NCBI GenBank assembly: GCA_015492495.1
Contig: WGEY01000088.1
Coordinates: 2,959 to 66,958, forward strand
Origin: Deltaproteobacteria bacterium
GTDB taxonomy: Bacteria; Desulfobacterota; GWC2-55-46; DRQE01
DNA length: 64,000 bases
Reading direction: 5' to 3'
The notes beneath the pieces are model-generated. The model was not told the origin of the DNA. It did not search any database and worked only from the letters and a program-made list of their open reading frames with translations. Below are positions 20,386 through 26,376 of the stretch, piece by piece. Each line of letters starts with the position of its first letter. Positions within the stretch are counted from its first letter, which is position 1. The position numbers and the translations under genes are program-made.

Positions 20386-20601
20386 ATGTCCGCATCGATA
20401 GTGCTCAGGGTTAAACTCGGACCGTTCGTTACCATCGAGGTCACCGGTGACAACTGCGAGGAGATCACCGAGGCCCTCGACGGATACGAGGCGCTCAATA
20501 AACGCATCGACAACATGTGCAGCGACCTCGTTGCCCATATCTACCCAGAAGGCCTGGAGGAACAGGAGGGCGCTGAGGAGCAGGAGGAGCGTAAGCAATG
20601 A
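20386..20601 (+). CDS. small acidic hypothetical protein (71 aa)
   Basis: Good RBS (AGGAG), then MSASIVLRVKLGPFVTIEVTGDNCEEITEALDGYEAL...EEQEGAEEQEERKQ. The stop overlaps the next start (ATGA). Confidence 0.45.
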   Translation: MSASIVLRVKLGPFVTIEVTGDNCEEITEALDGYEALNKRIDNMCSDLVAHIYPEGLEEQEGAEEQEERKQ

Positions 20602-21032
20602 AGTTCTGGGCAAAGGGGTTGATGAAGAGCGCACCCGGTGTGAAGGCAAGCGTGGAGATAGACCCGCTGAAGGTCGAGGGCAGCGTAAAGGGCAGCTTCA
20701 AGGGCAGCGTGGGCTCGATCTCGGCCGTTGTGGATGAGATCCCCATACGCCTGGCCGTCCCGTTCATGAAGCGAAGGTGCAGGCCCCCGGTGGTTGCCAC
20801 CATCGGCGGCTTCAGGCTCAAGCTCAACCCGTTTACGGTAAATATAGAAGGCGTCTCGTTCGATATCGGCGGGGTCCTCGGTACCGAGGGCATAAAGTCG
20901 ACACTCGACTGCCAGGTCGCGTGCAGGACAGAAATGGATGTAAAGGGCGGCGCGTCGGCCAAGCTCGGCAGGCTCGAGTTTCACCTCGGCGACGACACGG
21001 AATGCGACTACGAGTTCGAAGAGGGCGATTAG
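20598..21032 (+). CDS. hypothetical protein with short beta-strand repeats (VEGSVKGSFKGSVGS; ...NIEGVSFDIGGVLG...)
   Basis: 144 aa. Overlap-coupled to the upstream ORF. The repeat pattern loosely resembles beta-helical polymer-forming proteins (bactofilin-like); this is speculative. Confidence 0.45.
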   Translation: MKFWAKGLMKSAPGVKASVEIDPLKVEGSVKGSFKGSVGSISAVVDEIPIRLAVPFMKRRCRPPVVATIGGFRLKLNPFTVNIEGVSFDIGGVLGTEGIKSTLDCQVACRTEMDVKGGASAKLGRLEFHLGDDTECDYEFEEGD

Positions 21033-21106
21033 CCGGCACCGTTTTTCCAGCCCTTACTGTTCCGTGTCCTTAAACGTAACCGTCTCCAGACTCCGGGGAA
21101 AAACAG

Positions 21107-21850
21107 TTGCACGGACATTCTCCATATAAAGGTCATCGCTGCGCTCCCCCTGCGGCACACCATCAGGTCATCTGTCAGCATCAGGTGGAGGTCGAGGTCT
21201 GGCCCGCTGATGCGGAGGTCTACTTTAGCGACGAGAGGTACGCAGACCCGGTCAATACCCAGGTAAGGTTTGATGCGGTAGTCTACAACGCGCCTACCGA
21301 CAGGGTCACCTGGGAGGTCAGGGACCTCGCCGGCGGTCCCGGGGCCGGGCACATCGACCCGTCGGGGCTGTACACCGCTCCACCGAAGGGGACGCTTCCG
21401 CACGGGCTCACCGATGTGGTAATAGCGACCTCGGTCGACGATCCCTTGAGAAGTGCCCGCGCCCACGTAAGCCTCATCGGCCGCGGCCCCGAGCCTGCGC
21501 CCGAACCCCTCATAGAGGTATTTCCAAGGCAGACATACCTCTACTACCAGGCGGGCAACGCCCCCGACCACAACGAGTTCATAGATAAGAGCAACAAGGT
21601 ACAGCTCTTCAGGGCGGTCCTGCATAACGTCGGCTCCGCAGAGGAGATAGAGTGGCTTGAAAACGGCATACCGGTGTGGTCGAGTACCGTGCCGTGGCAC
21701 CTCTACACCGCGCCGATTATGCCGGATGCGAGCTTGCGAGTTGTGACGATAACCGCGCGCCTCAAGGCCAGGCCCCAGATAAGGGACGACGCCAAGGTGA
21801 AGCTCATAAACTACAGGTGGCCGGGTATCGTTCCGATAGTGTATCTGTAA
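21107..21850 (+). CDS. hypothetical protein, possible Ig-like/BIG-type beta domain (..GHIDPSGLYTAPP..)
   Basis: 247 aa in the ORF tool, with TTG at 21107; the true start is uncertain. No enzymatic motif. Confidence 0.35.
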   Translation: MHGHSPYKGHRCAPPAAHHQVICQHQVEVEVWPADAEVYFSDERYADPVNTQVRFDAVVYNAPTDRVTWEVRDLAGGPGAGHIDPSGLYTAPPKGTLPHGLTDVVIATSVDDPLRSARAHVSLIGRGPEPAPEPLIEVFPRQTYLYYQAGNAPDHNEFIDKSNKVQLFRAVLHNVGSAEEIEWLENGIPVWSSTVPWHLYTAPIMPDASLRVVTITARLKARPQIRDDAKVKLINYRWPGIVPIVYL

Positions 21851-21871
21851 CGCATAGGAGGCCTTTCGAAG

Positions 21872-24439: not shown

Positions 24440-24904
24440 ATGTCCTGTCACACGGAATACATGCCGGCATACCATCAACATCCATGGCAGATGTGCCACC
24501 ATTACCACCCGTGTCCTCCATACCCGTACTATTATTACGGATGGTGCACAGTCTGCTGCAGGCCCTATCATCTGTGCTGTTGCAGGGTGCGTTCCTGGAT
24601 GAACCTGCCTCAGGAGATAACGGTAGACCCCTCCTCTACTCCCAAGGAGGCGTTGGTTGGCGGAAGCCGCGATGCGGCGTTGACGCTCGAATACGTGCCG
24701 GATACGGGCAAATCAGCCACCGCCGCCGTAACGCTGACGATCACCTCGCCGGACGGCACAACGAGCACATGGAACGTCACCGGCATGACGGAGGAGTTCC
24801 ACGTAAAGGATGACTTCGCGTCCCTTTCGCCGGGCTCCAGGATCAAGCTCGAGGTGGTGGACGCCACGGCCAGGGTCAGGTGGTGCGAGGCGGTGTGTTG
24901 TTGA
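24440..24904 (+). CDS. Cys-cluster protein, paralog A (His/Tyr/Pro-rich N-terminus; C-x2-CC-x-P-x3-CCC motif; C-terminal ARVRWCEAVCC)
   Basis: 154 aa. Strong RBS AGGAAAGGAGGTG. MSCHTEYMPAYHQHPWQMCHHYHPCPPYPYYYYGWCTVCCRPYHLCCCRV...LTLEYVP...ARVRWCEAVCC. Confidence 0.55.
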   Translation: MSCHTEYMPAYHQHPWQMCHHYHPCPPYPYYYYGWCTVCCRPYHLCCCRVRSWMNLPQEITVDPSSTPKEALVGGSRDAALTLEYVPDTGKSATAAVTLTITSPDGTTSTWNVTGMTEEFHVKDDFASLSPGSRIKLEVVDATARVRWCEAVCC

Positions 24905-24929
24905 CAAAAAAACATACGGAGGTAGGATC

Positions 24930-25625
24930 GTGAGTTCACACGGGATCTTGGGGCACGCAGGCAGGATGACCATGTCACCGGCCGGGCCGCCGCGGAGAGG
25001 GCGCCATCAGCTACAGCATCATCAACCGCATTACCACGGTTTCTGCAGTTCGTGTTGTCATCCTGCCGCCAAGTGCTGCTGCCACAGGGAATGCCGCAAG
25101 GAATCCAAGGAGCTTCTGGTCAATGCGCTTGAGGGGAAAAGGGAGGAAGGGCTCAAGTTGACCCGGGAAGAGAAGCGGGTTGTGACCACGATGAGGTCGC
25201 TCATCAAGGAAGCCCCCGCACCTCCTCCATCCGGTGAGGGAGAAAAGAAGGGTGGGGAAAAGCTTATCACGAGTGTGGGCGGTGAGGAGTTTGCCGGTCT
25301 CACCAGGATGCCGGGGGTCATAGTAACCCCGAATATAAACATAGGCAAGGCCGTCATAGGAGGCGGCTGCTGCGTGCACCTCTCGATAGAGTACATGCCC
25401 ATTCCAGGGGCGGGGGGGGCCGCCTCAGGCAAGCCGGACCAGATGTCAGTCGTTTATGCGGAGGTGCTGGACAGCGAGTCCACCTTGCTCGGATGGGCTA
25501 AGGTCGTGGATAGCGGCTACCACATAAAGGAGTGCATCATAACCACCAACCCGGGTGCGATACTCACCGTGGGTGCCGTAAACGCCATAGCCCGCGTCAG
25601 GTGGTGTGAGGTCTTCAGCTGTTGA
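24930..25625 (+). CDS. Cys-cluster protein, paralog B (CSSCCHPAAKCCCHRE; C-terminal ARVRWCEVFSC)
   Basis: ORF 24810-25625 trimmed to the GTG at 24930, which sits 6 nt after GGAGGT. Shares the HYH...C-x2-CC-x-P-x3-CCC N-module, the internal ...SIEYMP... beta-domain and the ARVRWCE C-terminus with ORF 24440. Confidence 0.55.
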   Translation: MSSHGILGHAGRMTMSPAGPPRRGRHQLQHHQPHYHGFCSSCCHPAAKCCCHRECRKESKELLVNALEGKREEGLKLTREEKRVVTTMRSLIKEAPAPPPSGEGEKKGGEKLITSVGGEEFAGLTRMPGVIVTPNINIGKAVIGGGCCVHLSIEYMPIPGAGGAASGKPDQMSVVYAEVLDSESTLLGWAKVVDSGYHIKECIITTNPGAILTVGAVNAIARVRWCEVFSC

Positions 25626-25842
25626 GCGATACGCGGGGCTTCGTCACGGGGCGGTGCCGTGAGCGGGACCTTTCCCGCAATCAGGGATCTTCCGCACTGT
25701 TCCGTAGCGGTCCCGGATTGAAGCTTTCTCGAGTGGGCTAAGGCCTGCCTGTAGCAGACAGGGAATCTTCAAATGTTAAGGAAGTTTGCATTATATTCGC
25801 ACACTATCTATTTTCAACGTACAGACAAAGGGAGAACTGTAG

Positions 25843-26376
25843 ATGCCAGCCAAAAAGAAGGGAACAAAAGCGACCGGAAGGGGAAAAGCGGCGACGAGGA
25901 ACGTCCTGAACACCGCGTTCGAGGAGTACAAAAGGCGAATCTCCGGGGCGATGCCGGCCGGTGCGTCGGCCGTGAAAGGTCCGCTTGCACCACCGACGGG
26001 CGCTCCACCTGACTTCCCATCTTTCCCATTTATGTCAGCACCGGCCGCGCCGGGTGGGGCTTTGCCGTCGTCGTTACCGCCGCCGTTGCCTTTTCCCGGA
26101 CCTGTATCAGGGTTTGCCCAGGCGCAGGGCTCCATGGCCGACAAGGTCGGCAGGATGTTGATGCTCGGGGTGGATGTGGTGAACGCAAGCCTTTCGGGAT
26201 GGCTCAAGGTCATGGAGGGCTTCGGAGCAGGCGCGCGGTACGCGAACGGTTGTCACTTCGACCCTTGCCAGGGGCAACCCCCCTGTTACGGCGGCTGTTG
26301 CTGCATGGAGGCTCCTTGTTGTTGCGAATCCTGCTGTGAATGTTGTTGCACCCCGGGCGTGCACAACTGTTGTTAG
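25843..26376 (+). CDS. hypothetical protein with basic N-terminus, Pro/Ala-rich linker and extreme Cys-rich C-terminus (GCCCMEAPCCCESCCECCCTPGVHNCC)
   Basis: 177 aa. RBS GGGAGA. About 21 of the last 60 residues are Cys. Confidence 0.55.
   Translation: MPAKKKGTKATGRGKAATRNVLNTAFEEYKRRISGAMPAGASAVKGPLAPPTGAPPDFPSFPFMSAPAAPGGALPSSLPPPLPFPGPVSGFAQAQGSMADKVGRMLMLGVDVVNASLSGWLKVMEGFGAGARYANGCHFDPCQGQPPCYGGCCCMEAPCCCESCCECCCTPGVHNCC

Follow-up and report, generated by a model that had tools for sequence, protein, structure and literature searches.

A conserved, horizontally mobile 13-gene module combining putative isoprenoid enzymes with ten small soluble proteins

Family 2 encapsulins package terpenoid enzymes in protein shells (PMC8346489; PMC11550324). 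Their operons carry a terpene cyclase or a polyprenyl transferase as cargo (Andreas and Giessen, 2021, PMC8346489), and a 2-methylisoborneol shell provides an example (PMC11550324). Here we describe a different combination of isoprenoid-related and non-enzymatic genes, found in a 64,000-nt stretch of deltaproteobacterial DNA (contig WGEY01000088.1; the window). Positions 18709-26376 of the window hold a copy of a 13-gene module that is conserved and horizontally mobile; 12 of the genes are intact here and one is a remnant (Table 1). The module comprises two sub-modules: an enzymatic one, with A309, B228 and a flavoenzyme of the geranylgeranyl reductase (GGR) family, and a second whose ten products (C, D, E, F, G, H, J, K, L and M) are small and soluble. 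The cluster is unannotated and apparently undescribed; a description of such a cluster was not found in the literature.

Table 1. Genes and other sequence features of the cluster and its immediate surroundings.
Feature	Position	Strand	Description
Promoter-like site	18465-18493	+	TTGACA-17-TAAAAT, 11/12 matches, ~215 nt 5' of first cluster gene; consensus scan only
A309	18709-19638	+	Predicted class I terpenoid-synthase/prenyltransferase fold enzyme; orphan sequence family
B228	19631-20317	+	Partner of A309, 8-nt overlap; conserved H/C...CxxC motif, helical middle, basic Gly/Asn/Lys tail
Second promoter-like site	20327-20354		5' of C71, where the short cluster variant begins; consensus scan only
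C71	20386-20601	+	Small acidic protein; first gene of the core common to long and short types
D144	20598-21032	+	Beta-rich; conserved EIPIRLxIPF and GVLG motifs, acidic tail
E221	21185-21850	+	Highly conserved protein
F291	21872-22747	+	Conserved "IDP-repeat" N-terminal region of ~180 aa, then variable disordered tail
G106	22744-23064	+	His-rich N-terminus, amphipathic helix motif, Cys-rich C-terminus with CCCCC end
H265	23127-23924	+	Lys/Ala-rich basic N-terminal tail, amphipathic Gly-rich helix, conserved C-terminal domain
Flavoenzyme remnant	23961-24197	+	5' end only of the GGR-family gene of the cluster; FAD_binding_3 match
J66	24223-24423	+	Small helical protein, acidic tail; GGAGG 5' of ATG at 24223
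K154	24440-24904	+	Cys/His/Tyr-rich N-terminus and beta domain, C-terminal ARVRWCEAVCC
L219	24966-25625	+	Cys-rich N-terminus (CCCHRECRKESKELLV), beta domain with GGGCCVHLSIEY, C-terminal ARVRWCEVFSC
Small repeat element	25717-25797	+	Between L and M; inverted copy at 17468-17548, just 3' of lexA
M177	25843-26376	+	Basic N-terminus, Pro-rich middle, amphipathic helix, Cys-rich C-terminus ending PGVHNCC

The initial annotation described a ten-gene co-directional block at 20386-26376. The run is indeed uninterrupted, with ORFs on the + strand only, and adjacent ORFs overlap by 4 nt (ATGA) at 20598 and 22744; Shine-Dalgarno sites of the AGGAG/GGAGG type lie 5' of most starts. The extent of the block was underestimated. 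The true start lies two genes earlier, at 18709, with the overlapping A309 and B228 genes, which are co-conserved with the remaining cluster genes. Three starts are revised: the ORF called at 24810 begins at 24966 or 24972, giving 219 aa, E begins at 21185, and J begins at 24223 (66 aa). Across the block ORFs, third-position GC (GC3) is 0.64-0.81 vs 0.33-0.61 for GC2, a strong coding signal; because of this signal, and because every product has orthologues, the ORFs are real genes. Collinear homologues of every ORF occur in many phyla and cannot have arisen by chance.

The collinear cluster recurs, its gene order unchanged, in the genomes of 29 GTDB species and on hundreds of metagenome contigs; at least nine phyla are represented. 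Loci lie in Nitrospirota, Desulfobacterota, Pseudomonadota, Acidobacteriota, Nitrospinota, Verrucomicrobiota, Methylomirabilota and Calditrichia, and the source names of the homologue search add an L homologue from Chitinivibrionales. Nitrospira sp. DJ (CP058931.1) is one carrier of a complete cluster. A synteny comparison had been proposed as a check, and the order is preserved in every locus where the cluster is present, rather than the genes being scattered or absent. Distribution is patchy, yet A309 is 51-66% identical across phyla. In locus L038, the cluster and a DDE transposase are bordered on one side by a complete thiC and on the other by a second copy of its 3' end, 469 nt long and 96% identical; this island-like insertion and the patchy spread over at least nine phyla at 50-66% identity therefore identify the cluster as horizontally transferred, not as a lineage-specific core feature. 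The earlier statement that marks of a mobile island are lacking thus applies within the window, where no tRNA, integrase or transposase lies beside the block, but not to L038. The flanks are as first described, with lexA and a Y-family polymerase upstream and a TPR-ExbB-ExbD-ExbD-TonB operon downstream. The repeat element between L and M, present in two copies (vs zero expected by chance), has 81-nt arms that are 81% complementary and share a 42-nt identical core; the L-M spacer measures 217 nt here vs 23 nt in locus L006. Alpha-amylase-family genes recur as neighbours of the cluster, an observation listed against the reading favoured below.

Two cluster types exist, a long one with A309 and the flavoenzyme and a short one with neither; their common core begins at C71. 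The statement that the block holds no recognisable enzymes does not stand, given the fold of A309 and the flavoenzyme remnant. A309 is, on its predicted structure, a terpenoid-synthase-fold protein: its model shows the all-helical class I fold, in which two of the long helices each bear a conserved Asp-rich motif at one end. Identity in structural alignments with class I terpenoid synthases and prenyltransferases is only 7-15%, there is no Pfam, NCBIfam or PDB sequence match, and the motifs read DSFxDD and DDxGDxxxD, vs canonical DDxxD and NSE/DTE. Elongation, cyclisation and transfer of a prenyl chain are all compatible with the data, and which of them A309 carries out cannot be told. A309 remains within the cluster even in the rearranged loci L023 and L040. 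Its translationally coupled partner B228, which has no family match in Pfam, NCBIfam, PHROGs or PADLOC, has collinear orthologues (34-55% identity) and is present wherever A309 sits inside the cluster.

The remnant matches Pfam FAD_binding_3 at 27.9 bits (cut-off 22) and shares 71% identity with residues 2-56 of the L006 enzyme (486 aa); it retains the first ~55 codons, including the GxGxxG dinucleotide-binding motif. The full 486-aa flavoenzyme is intact at the same position in most other loci. The H-to-J spacing is ~290-300 nt here vs ~1,500-1,580 nt in almost every locus where the enzyme is still present; the short spacing is repeated in three other assemblies of the same sequence, and a fourth contig stops inside the remnant. 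In related loci, the flavoenzyme scores 197 bits against TIGR02032 (cut-off 158.8), and its top PDB match is 3oz2, an archaeal digeranylgeranylglycerophospholipid reductase (E 3e-30). The reductase is lost here and in L009, with the other cluster genes kept.

The isoprenoid link is found twice independently, since short-type clusters have their own isoprenoid neighbours: a GGR-family enzyme distinct from that of the long type (L015, L031, L034, L025), a polyprenyl synthase of the canonical GGPP/IdsA type (L015, L034, L025) and IspH (L015, L034). A309 is absent from the short type within the DNA retrieved, so its role may not be that of the canonical polyprenyl synthase.

The ten small proteins have no signal peptide, no membrane helix and no recognisable catalytic domain, and none matches Pfam, NCBIfam, PHROGs or PADLOC; profiles of four have no significant PDB sequence match. 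C71, whose gene shares an ATGA overlap with that of D144, is 45-64% identical in 26 loci, and J66 33-64% in 27. D144 is present in all loci covering its position. E221 has a mean column identity of 49% over 21 loci and 26 invariant residues, and its sequence suggests two beta domains; neither the D144 nor the E221 profile matches the PDB. F291, with more than 150 homologues at E<1e-57 and 37 invariant residues, likewise has no significant PDB match, and AF2 models the monomer poorly (pLDDT 50.8), consistent with a protein that folds only when assembled.

The unusual compositions reported initially are confirmed. Cys is abundant in G (15), K (12), L (12) and M (16), and few or none occur in C, D, E, F, H and J; G106 and K154 contain 10 and 8 His, respectively, and H265 (38 Lys+Arg) and M177 have Lys/Ala-rich N-termini. 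K154 is a paralogue of L219 (hhalign probability 99.6%). Its C-terminal RWCExxCC is kept in most loci, with R145, R147, W148 and E150 invariant, and its PDB matches, to MSP-type beta-sandwiches, are all sub-threshold (E 0.7-1.5). L219 is represented by 485 homologue clusters of 190-250 aa that cover 89-100% of the 219-aa form, and its C-terminus is nearly invariant. Orthologues of M177 are found in 21 loci, mostly with an xCC end, and those of G106 in 14. G, H and M have a helix motif in common (hydrophobic moment 0.49-0.53), at hhalign probabilities that are only moderate: 77% for G106 with M177 (E 1.9e-5) and 74% for H265 residues 74-111 with M177 residues 95-132. A protein with the three-part layout of H265 adjoins the isoprenoid genes of short-type clusters.

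Our preferred reading, which is tentative, is that the module encodes a protein assembly or inclusion that lies in the cytoplasm and is coupled to an isoprenoid of about C20. The approximately ten small proteins probably build an intracellular structure; the unmodellable F291 monomer, the K/L paralogues with conserved terminal Cys and the G/H/M helix motif are counted in support, as is the absence of membrane helices, signal peptides and library matches. The initial proposal of a structural or assembly gene set accordingly fits the small, soluble, unmatched products; it is not proven, and it missed the isoprenoid enzymes. Within the cytoplasm, the ten proteins would assemble by themselves to form a multi-protein body (a shell or lattice, or else a coated inclusion), with D, E and F as conserved core building blocks. 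K and L would be paralogous beta-domain subunits, whose Cys/His-rich N-termini and RWCE...C C-termini may form cross-links or metal sites between subunits; G, H and M would dock through their common ~36-aa amphipathic helix, and the basic tails of H, M and B could hold the body to DNA or another polyanion. The enzymatic sub-module would supply a prenyl compound of about C20, synthesised at the body, stored in it or attached to it, and saturated where the reductase is present. With the reductase step lost here and all else intact, any isoprenoid involved would therefore stay unsaturated. Several points count against this reading. Loss of the reductase here and in L009, with the rest kept, makes saturation at least dispensable; no ATPase, chaperone or positioning protein is encoded in the cluster; and the Cys/His-rich composition would fit metal binding equally well. 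Modelling covered only two proteins and failed for the structural one, which leaves "shell" and "lattice" conjectural.

The terminal Cys residues could instead serve protein lipidation: A309 would attach a geranylgeranyl-type chain to the C-terminal Cys of K, L, M and G, the reductase would saturate it, and the lipidated beta-domain proteins would anchor to the membrane or to each other. We regard this as unlikely. The terminal Cys motifs are kept in short-type clusters, although A309 is missing from the DNA retrieved for these; certain K orthologues lack a terminal Cys (...VETY, ...FEFVS); and metal binding or disulfide cross-links would explain the terminal Cys equally well. To our knowledge, S-prenylation of Cys by a class I-fold enzyme has no precedent.

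The extreme Cys and His content of G, K, L and M, together with their conserved CxxC...CxC and CCCxxxEC motifs, would also suit a metal-sequestering body or thiol-rich sink in the cytoplasm, akin to a large metallothionein or storage particle, with the isoprenoid enzymes as accessories. Occasional transporter neighbours point the same way: ZIP in L031, a CDF family member in L039 and one Nramp among 148 flanking ORFs scanned. These are sporadic (three of ~24 loci), however, and the K N-terminus has few or no Cys in Nitrospira-type loci, so the Cys-rich regions are not universally kept. Recruitment of two different isoprenoid enzyme sets and the six proteins with few or no Cys are left unexplained, and we consider such a matrix improbable.

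A RiPP-like or terpenoid natural-product cluster, in which the terpenoid-fold enzyme and the flavoenzyme would modify precursor peptides encoded by the small Cys-rich ORFs beside them, is very unlikely. The flavoenzyme is distantly similar to FADH2-dependent halogenases (E 1e-14 to 1e-17), yet it passes the GGR family cut-off and no halogenase model. The "precursors" are 106-219 aa long, with conserved folded domains and termini instead of a leader and a hypervariable core; conservation is just as high in the six proteins with few or no Cys; and protease, transporter, immunity and regulator genes are absent from the cluster. Many small, co-directional, translationally coupled genes of unknown function that move horizontally might recall a domesticated phage capsid or tail module or virus-like particle, an origin that is already largely refuted and scarcely credible: there are no meaningful PHROG matches, tblastn against 50,697 phage records and 72,556 plasmids gave no match, no relative was found among IMG/VR contigs, and terminase, portal, protease and integrase genes are absent from every locus.

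The preferred reading, a cytoplasmic assembly coupled to an isoprenoid, can be set against several known systems. Gas vesicle (gvp) clusters share the set of roughly 8-14 mostly small structural genes and the patchy horizontal spread in aquatic and sediment bacteria. However, GvpA/J, GvpN, GvpF/L or any other Gvp family was undetected among the cluster products, none of which is highly hydrophobic in the manner of GvpA (top 19-residue Kyte-Doolittle average 1.4), and gvp clusters lack the enzymes and Cys-rich proteins present here. In PhaF and PhaM, an amphipathic helix and a Lys/Ala-rich, histone-H1-like tail link PHA granules to the nucleoid. H265, M177 and the H-like protein of the short type combine the same elements, a likeness of architecture only; the cluster has no phasin Pfam match and no polymer synthase, and the presumed hydrophobic partner is an isoprenoid, not a polyester.

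The predicted fold of A309 is that of class I terpenoid synthases and prenyltransferases (polyprenyl-PP synthases, bacterial terpene cyclases, MoeN5, DabA, ComQ), although A309 has no sequence-level membership and its Asp-rich motifs are non-canonical. The cluster flavoenzyme lies above the family cut-off of the geranylgeranyl reductases (TIGR02032; archaeal digeranylgeranylglycerophospholipid reductase, ChlP/BchP, MenJ) but far below those of the equivalogs: 116 bits vs 700 for MenJ, 110 vs 580 for DGGGPL reductase and 106 vs 343 for BchP/ChlP. It also differs in an extra C-terminal region of ~150 aa, and its gene is destroyed in the window.

Family 2 encapsulins differ in that the Pfam and NCBIfam models for encapsulins and HK97 match none of the 13 cluster proteins, and in that one or two shell proteins form an encapsulin system vs ten different small proteins here, accompanied by Cys/His-rich components and a GGR-family reductase. 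The second-best NCBIfam match of the short-type polyprenyl synthases is the encapsulin cargo polyprenyl transferase, at 175-178 bits vs a cut-off of 450. Both systems are cytoplasmic and horizontally spread, and both combine isoprenoid enzymes with non-enzymatic proteins that self-assemble in encapsulins and would do so here.

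Between 20386 and 26376 runs an unbroken series of plus-strand ORFs, as described in the initial annotation. It has a coding signal (GC3 of 0.64-0.81 vs GC2 of 0.33-0.61 across the block ORFs), ATGA stop/start overlaps located exactly at 20598 and 22744, and AGGAG/GGAGG-type SD sites before most starts. The unusual compositions are equally real: G106, K154, L219 and M177 contain 15, 12, 12 and 16 Cys residues, G106 and K154 contain 10 and 8 His residues, and the N-termini of H265 and M177 are rich in Lys and Ala. A spurious-ORF reading is ruled out by GC3 periodicity together with cross-phylum orthology. 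The 219-residue form of L has 485 homologue clusters; among the matches listed, the best-scoring mostly have lengths of 190-250 aa and span 89-100% of it, and a conserved N-terminal CCCxHRECRKExKELLV motif further supports its start. A 425-aa minus-strand ORF (21029-22306) opposite E221 and F291 is most likely not a real gene, because the plus-strand products that it overlaps are conserved across phyla; other long antisense ORFs likewise overlap conserved plus-strand genes and are probably not genes either. The annotation set the 5' limit too far downstream, since the unit starts two genes earlier, at A309, and its statement that the block held no recognisable enzymes proved wrong: a remnant of a geranylgeranyl reductase (GGR)-family gene and isoprenoid enzymes had been missed.

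Genes of the cluster in the window and neighbouring genes in homologous loci (letters give gene order, numbers give residues; L numbers denote loci in other genomes or metagenome contigs)
Feature	Sequence	Coordinates	Remark
A309	window	18709-19638	
B228	window	19631-20317	8-nt overlap with A309
C71	window	20386-20601	
D144	window	20598-21032	
E221	window	21185-21850	
F291	window	21872-22747	
G106	window	22744-23064	
H265	window	23127-23924	
Reductase remnant	window	23961-24197	78-codon stump
J66	window	24223-24423	
K154	window	24440-24904	
L219	window	24966-25625	
M177	window	25843-26376	
Short-type neighbour region	L015	2570-7947	
Short-type neighbour region	L034	3161-7850	
Short-type neighbour region	L031	4916-6400	
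Short-type neighbour region	L025	5679-8721	
Alpha-amylase-family gene	L006	15628-17100	
Alpha-amylase-family gene	L013	15350-16795	
Alpha-amylase-family gene	L031	13148-14548	
Alpha-amylase-family or other glucan genes	L040	1-540 and 6576-8324	

The flanks are those reported earlier: lexA (PF01726 + PF00717) and a Y-family polymerase gene upstream, and a TPR-ExbB-ExbD-ExbD-TonB operon downstream. A 97-aa minus-strand ORF between the polymerase gene and lexA (17127-17420) has a weak match to DUF6504 (E 5e-4, under the cut-off) and may form an SOS mutagenesis cassette with these two genes. No Rfam family lies near the block.

The cluster is conserved far beyond this organism. F291 has more than 150 homologues at E<1e-57 and A309 has 372 homologue clusters, with no names or Pfam domains among them. 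The gene order in the fetched contexts is A-B-C-D-E-F-(G)-H-[486-aa flavoenzyme]-J-K-L-M, and contexts with identical order include the complete Nitrospira chromosome CP058931.1, a Calditrichia MAG and Deltaproteobacteria. A scan of 185,579 GTDB species genomes (one genome per species) yielded 29 loci, a lower bound since the scan was pattern-based, and a tblastn table confirmed collinearity in all of them. Their hosts belong to Nitrospirota, Desulfobacterota (SEEP-SRB2, Syntrophobacterales), Acidobacteriota, Nitrospinota, Verrucomicrobia, Methylomirabilis, and Gamma- and Alphaproteobacteria (Gallionella, Rhodocyclaceae, Hypericibacter). Overall, the ten non-enzymatic products occur in fixed order and at 35-65% identity in uncultured bacteria of at least nine phyla. 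Wherever a locus spans the relevant position, C, D, E, F, H and K are found without exception, and J and L almost always. Between phyla, A309 keeps 51-66% identity, and in a set of 1.84 billion representative proteins it falls into what is essentially a single cluster at 50% identity. The rarity of the loci, combined with this high identity, points to horizontal spread.

One locus, L038 (4418-16032 of ENA ERZ1300416 NODE_207), carries the complete cluster and a DDE_Tnp_1 transposase bracketed by thiC copies. A full-length thiC (Pfam profile positions 11-419) lies on one side, and on the other the 3' end of thiC is duplicated over 469 nt at 96% identity (profile positions 270-419); this is an island-like insertion that restores its target gene. 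In the window there is no such signature: the cluster is embedded between the SOS genes and the TonB operon, its GC content (0.58-0.61) is like that of the flanks, tRNA, integrase and transposase genes are absent at the block borders, as already noted from the sequence, and the sole tRNA of the window is far off, at 51.5 kb. The only repeat found there that bears on the island question is an 81-nt inverted repeat, present in two copies vs 0 expected, just 3' of lexA (17468-17548) and between L219 and M177 (25717-25797). Its arms are 81% complementary and share a 42-nt identical core, TCGAGTGGGCTAAGGCCTGCCTGTAGCAGACAGGGAATCTTC; each lies in the sense orientation of its upstream gene, and the RNA fold is unremarkable (z 0.23). 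Possibly the repeat is a small element of MITE or REP type whose presence lengthened the L-M spacer to 217 nt, vs 23 nt in L006. A 44-nt direct repeat (24861-24904 and 25582-25625, 75% identical) is not a mobile repeat; it represents the conserved ...ARVRWCE..C(stop) coding ends of the paralogues K and L. The sister assembly L001, 99% identical, has a 1.5-kb insertion encoding a PEP-CTERM-domain protein between lexA and A309 (window 18371-18413) and differs in length in the non-coding stretch 3' of M177 (window 27284-27519), so both intergenic regions vary between strains; being the same locus with an insertion, L001 was rejected as a separate context that could set the 5' border.

The window has lost the reductase of the cluster. 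The remnant between H265 and J66 passes Pfam FAD_binding_3, and it aligns at 71% identity with residues 2-56 of the 486-aa protein found at this position in most loci; nothing beyond these residues of a GGR-family gene is kept there. About 1.2 kb of the gene is missing, and the H-to-J spacing is ~290-300 nt, vs ~1,500-1,580 nt in almost every locus where the enzyme is retained. The short spacing recurs in three other assemblies of the window sequence, and a fourth contig ends inside the remnant; the deletion is therefore not an assembly artefact. In L009, a related Nitrospirota locus, the reductase has decayed independently at the same spot. Judged by sequence models, GGR-family membership (TIGR02032 / PF22578) is assigned to the intact orthologues and not to the window gene: the orthologues score 197.3 (L006) and 194.7 bits (L010) against TIGR02032 (cut-off 158.8), and the best PDB relative of the 486-aa protein is the archaeal digeranylgeranylglycerophospholipid reductase 3oz2 (E 3e-30). 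With the other 12 window genes intact and the reductase deleted, any isoprenoid involved would be unsaturated here. Another 486-aa ORF of the window (39036-40496) is not a relocated reductase; it encodes a PLD-type enzyme, probably cardiolipin synthase. The N-terminal extensions of the reductase ORFs in L025 and L036 are upstream read-through rather than targeting domains, because Arg-rich junk precedes the GxGxxG motif. In the metagenome locus L039, a second FAD_binding_3 protein (5589-7067, 492 aa), ~42% identical to the cluster reductase, is encoded directly upstream of A309, and the H-J copy is also present.

A second, shorter architecture gives an independent link to isoprenoids. Short-type loci, namely L015, L031 and L034 (Gammaproteobacteria, Gallionella), L017 and probably L025, have neither A nor B nor a gene between H and J, which are 13-125 nt apart. 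A different, divergently transcribed GGR-family reductase adjoins the L015, L031, L034 and L025 clusters (187-228 bits on TIGR02032 where scored), a canonical polyprenyl synthetase lies beside those of L015, L034 and L025 (PF00348 at E 1e-58 to 1e-59 in L015 and L034), and IspH/LytB adjoins those of L015 and L034. The latter two loci also encode an extra protein with the H265 layout of a Lys-rich tail, a helical middle and a C-terminal domain. The best NCBIfam matches of the synthetases, IdsA and GGPP synthase, are sub-threshold equivalog matches that suggest a short chain-length class, about C20. In the flanks of 20 loci (148 ORFs), the Pfam families that recur are GGR_cat (4), polyprenyl_synt (3), LYTB (2) and Alpha-amylase (4). 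The gene contents of the long and short types indicate that two non-homologous sets of isoprenoid enzymes were recruited to the same structural genes, and no other clue to function in the data is as strong as this double recruitment. In Nitrospirota and Gallionella loci, genes of the alpha-amylase family are repeatedly found immediately 3' of the cluster, and GH77, GH31-CBM20 and phosphoglucomutase genes lie near it in a deltaproteobacterial locus; a link to glucan metabolism may be a coincidence.

In the long type, A309 is the other candidate isoprenoid enzyme. Its structural model is a class I terpenoid synthase fold, all-alpha, with two Asp-rich predicted metal-binding motifs on opposing helices. 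No Pfam or NCBIfam model, including PF00348 and those for terpene synthases and squalene/phytoene synthases, matches A309 at E<=0.1, its profile finds no match among PDB sequences, and its remote relatives are also free of Pfam domains. MoeN5 and DabA, true prenyl-transferring enzymes, are among its nearest structural neighbours.

The remaining ten proteins are predicted to be cytoplasmic, as they have neither membrane helices (highest 19-residue Kyte-Doolittle hydropathy average 1.4) nor signal-peptide-like N-termini. None matches an annotated family in Pfam, NCBIfam, PHROGs or PADLOC, and no PDB sequence is significantly matched by profiles of D144, E221, F291 and K/L. Within the first 180 aa of F291, 37 residues are invariant; its monomer model is poor (pLDDT 50.8), as would be typical of a protein that folds only within an assembly. 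K and L are paralogues (hhalign probability 99.6%) whose beta domain closes with an invariant R-x-R-W-C-E motif and then ...CC or ...SC as the last residues; the C-terminus is ...xCC in M and a run of Cys in G. A Gly-rich amphipathic segment of ~36 aa is common to G, H and M (hhalign probabilities 74-77%, E about 2e-5; hydrophobic moment 0.49-0.53), and H, M and B have strongly basic low-complexity tails.

The cluster is thus a mobile module of 13 genes, in which one sub-module encodes the isoprenoid enzymes and the other soluble proteins that show no recognisable catalytic domain. Its existence, extent, conservation, mobility and isoprenoid association are well supported; as a hypothesis for its mechanism, an intracellular body is proposed. 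It is quite possible, if short of probable, that the ten proteins come together in the cytoplasm as a defined body. Its core would consist of D, E and F; K and L would serve as repeating beta-domain subunits, linked via their Cys/His-rich ends; G, H and M would dock via the helix they share; and the basic tails would hold the body to a polyanion such as DNA. The prenyl compound supplied by the enzymes would be synthesised at the body, stored inside it or bound to it.

Several rival readings rank lower. A309 could S-prenylate the terminal cysteines, with reduction to follow, which would fit both the conserved C-terminal Cys and the structural nearness of A309 to MoeN5 and DabA; yet short-type clusters keep the Cys motifs with no A309 in the DNA retrieved, and this chemistry appears unlikely. 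As to prenylation of the CaaX or Rab CC-CXC type, no homologues of protein prenyltransferase alpha or beta subunits are present among the Pfam matches. A metal- or thiol-buffering matrix would account for the Cys/His content and for occasional metal-transporter neighbours, but it would explain neither the double recruitment of isoprenoid enzymes nor the six proteins with few or no Cys, and is quite improbable. The 'precursors' of a RiPP-like biosynthetic cluster would be large and conserved, and neither a protease nor an exporter is encoded, making such a pathway highly improbable. Phage-derived particles are scarcely credible: F291 has no tblastn match in phage and plasmid collections, no relative was found in IMG/VR, and PHROGs gives just two matches at E~0.03, both to families of unknown function. 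These results, together with PADLOC (0 defence families for 10 proteins), also dispose of a plasmid or defence origin.

Taken at its widest, the intracellular-body hypothesis describes a new bacterial structure, a body or shell of about ten dedicated proteins with no known relatives and with its own isoprenoid-making and -saturating enzymes, acting as a terpenoid-filled or -coated compartment or a prenylated-protein scaffold and spreading between phyla as a unit of ~8-9 kb; in this full form it is doubtful. The host phyla include nitrite oxidisers, iron oxidisers, sulfate reducers and methanotrophs, and conservation in environmentally important lineages (Nitrospira, Nitrospinota, Methylomirabilis, Gallionella, SEEP-SRB2, Acidobacteriota) implies a strong, portable function. 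The double recruitment offers a testable lead to a structure in the bacterial cytoplasm linked to an isoprenoid of C20 type, often saturated, and the ~8-9 kb size and lack of membrane proteins make heterologous reconstitution realistic. If confirmed, the module would join the few organelle-like assemblies known from bacteria, open a new branch of enzymes with the class I terpenoid fold and possibly reveal a protein-prenylation chemistry in bacteria.

We rate the cluster as lying outside any known kind of system, and no published description of such a cluster was found in the full-text literature, a coverage that leaves out most subscription journals. Gas vesicles, microcompartments, encapsulins, R-bodies and phasins are rejected for want of Pfam/NCBIfam family matches; GvpA/GvpN, BMC-H/BMC-P and RebA/B are absent from the matches of every product. 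Magnetosome 'mad' genes, considered in view of the Nitrospirota and Desulfobacterota hosts, are rejected since no mam genes lie nearby, and further by the presence of the cluster in lineages that are not known to be magnetotactic, such as Nitrospira, Gallionella, Bryobacteraceae and Rhodocyclaceae. For encapsulin families 1-4, no encapsulin model is among the Pfam/NCBIfam matches of any cluster protein, these being sequence models that a remote HK97 fold could escape, and the short-type polyprenyl synthases reach 175-178 bits on the polyprenyl transferase cargo model NF041169 (cut-off 450). The nearest functional precedent is nonetheless that of family 2 encapsulins, whose shells package terpene cyclases and polyprenyl transferases (PMC8346489; PMC11550324), whereas this cluster has no detectable encapsulin-type shell protein; the likeness, drawn by analogy, is a resemblance in logic rather than membership.
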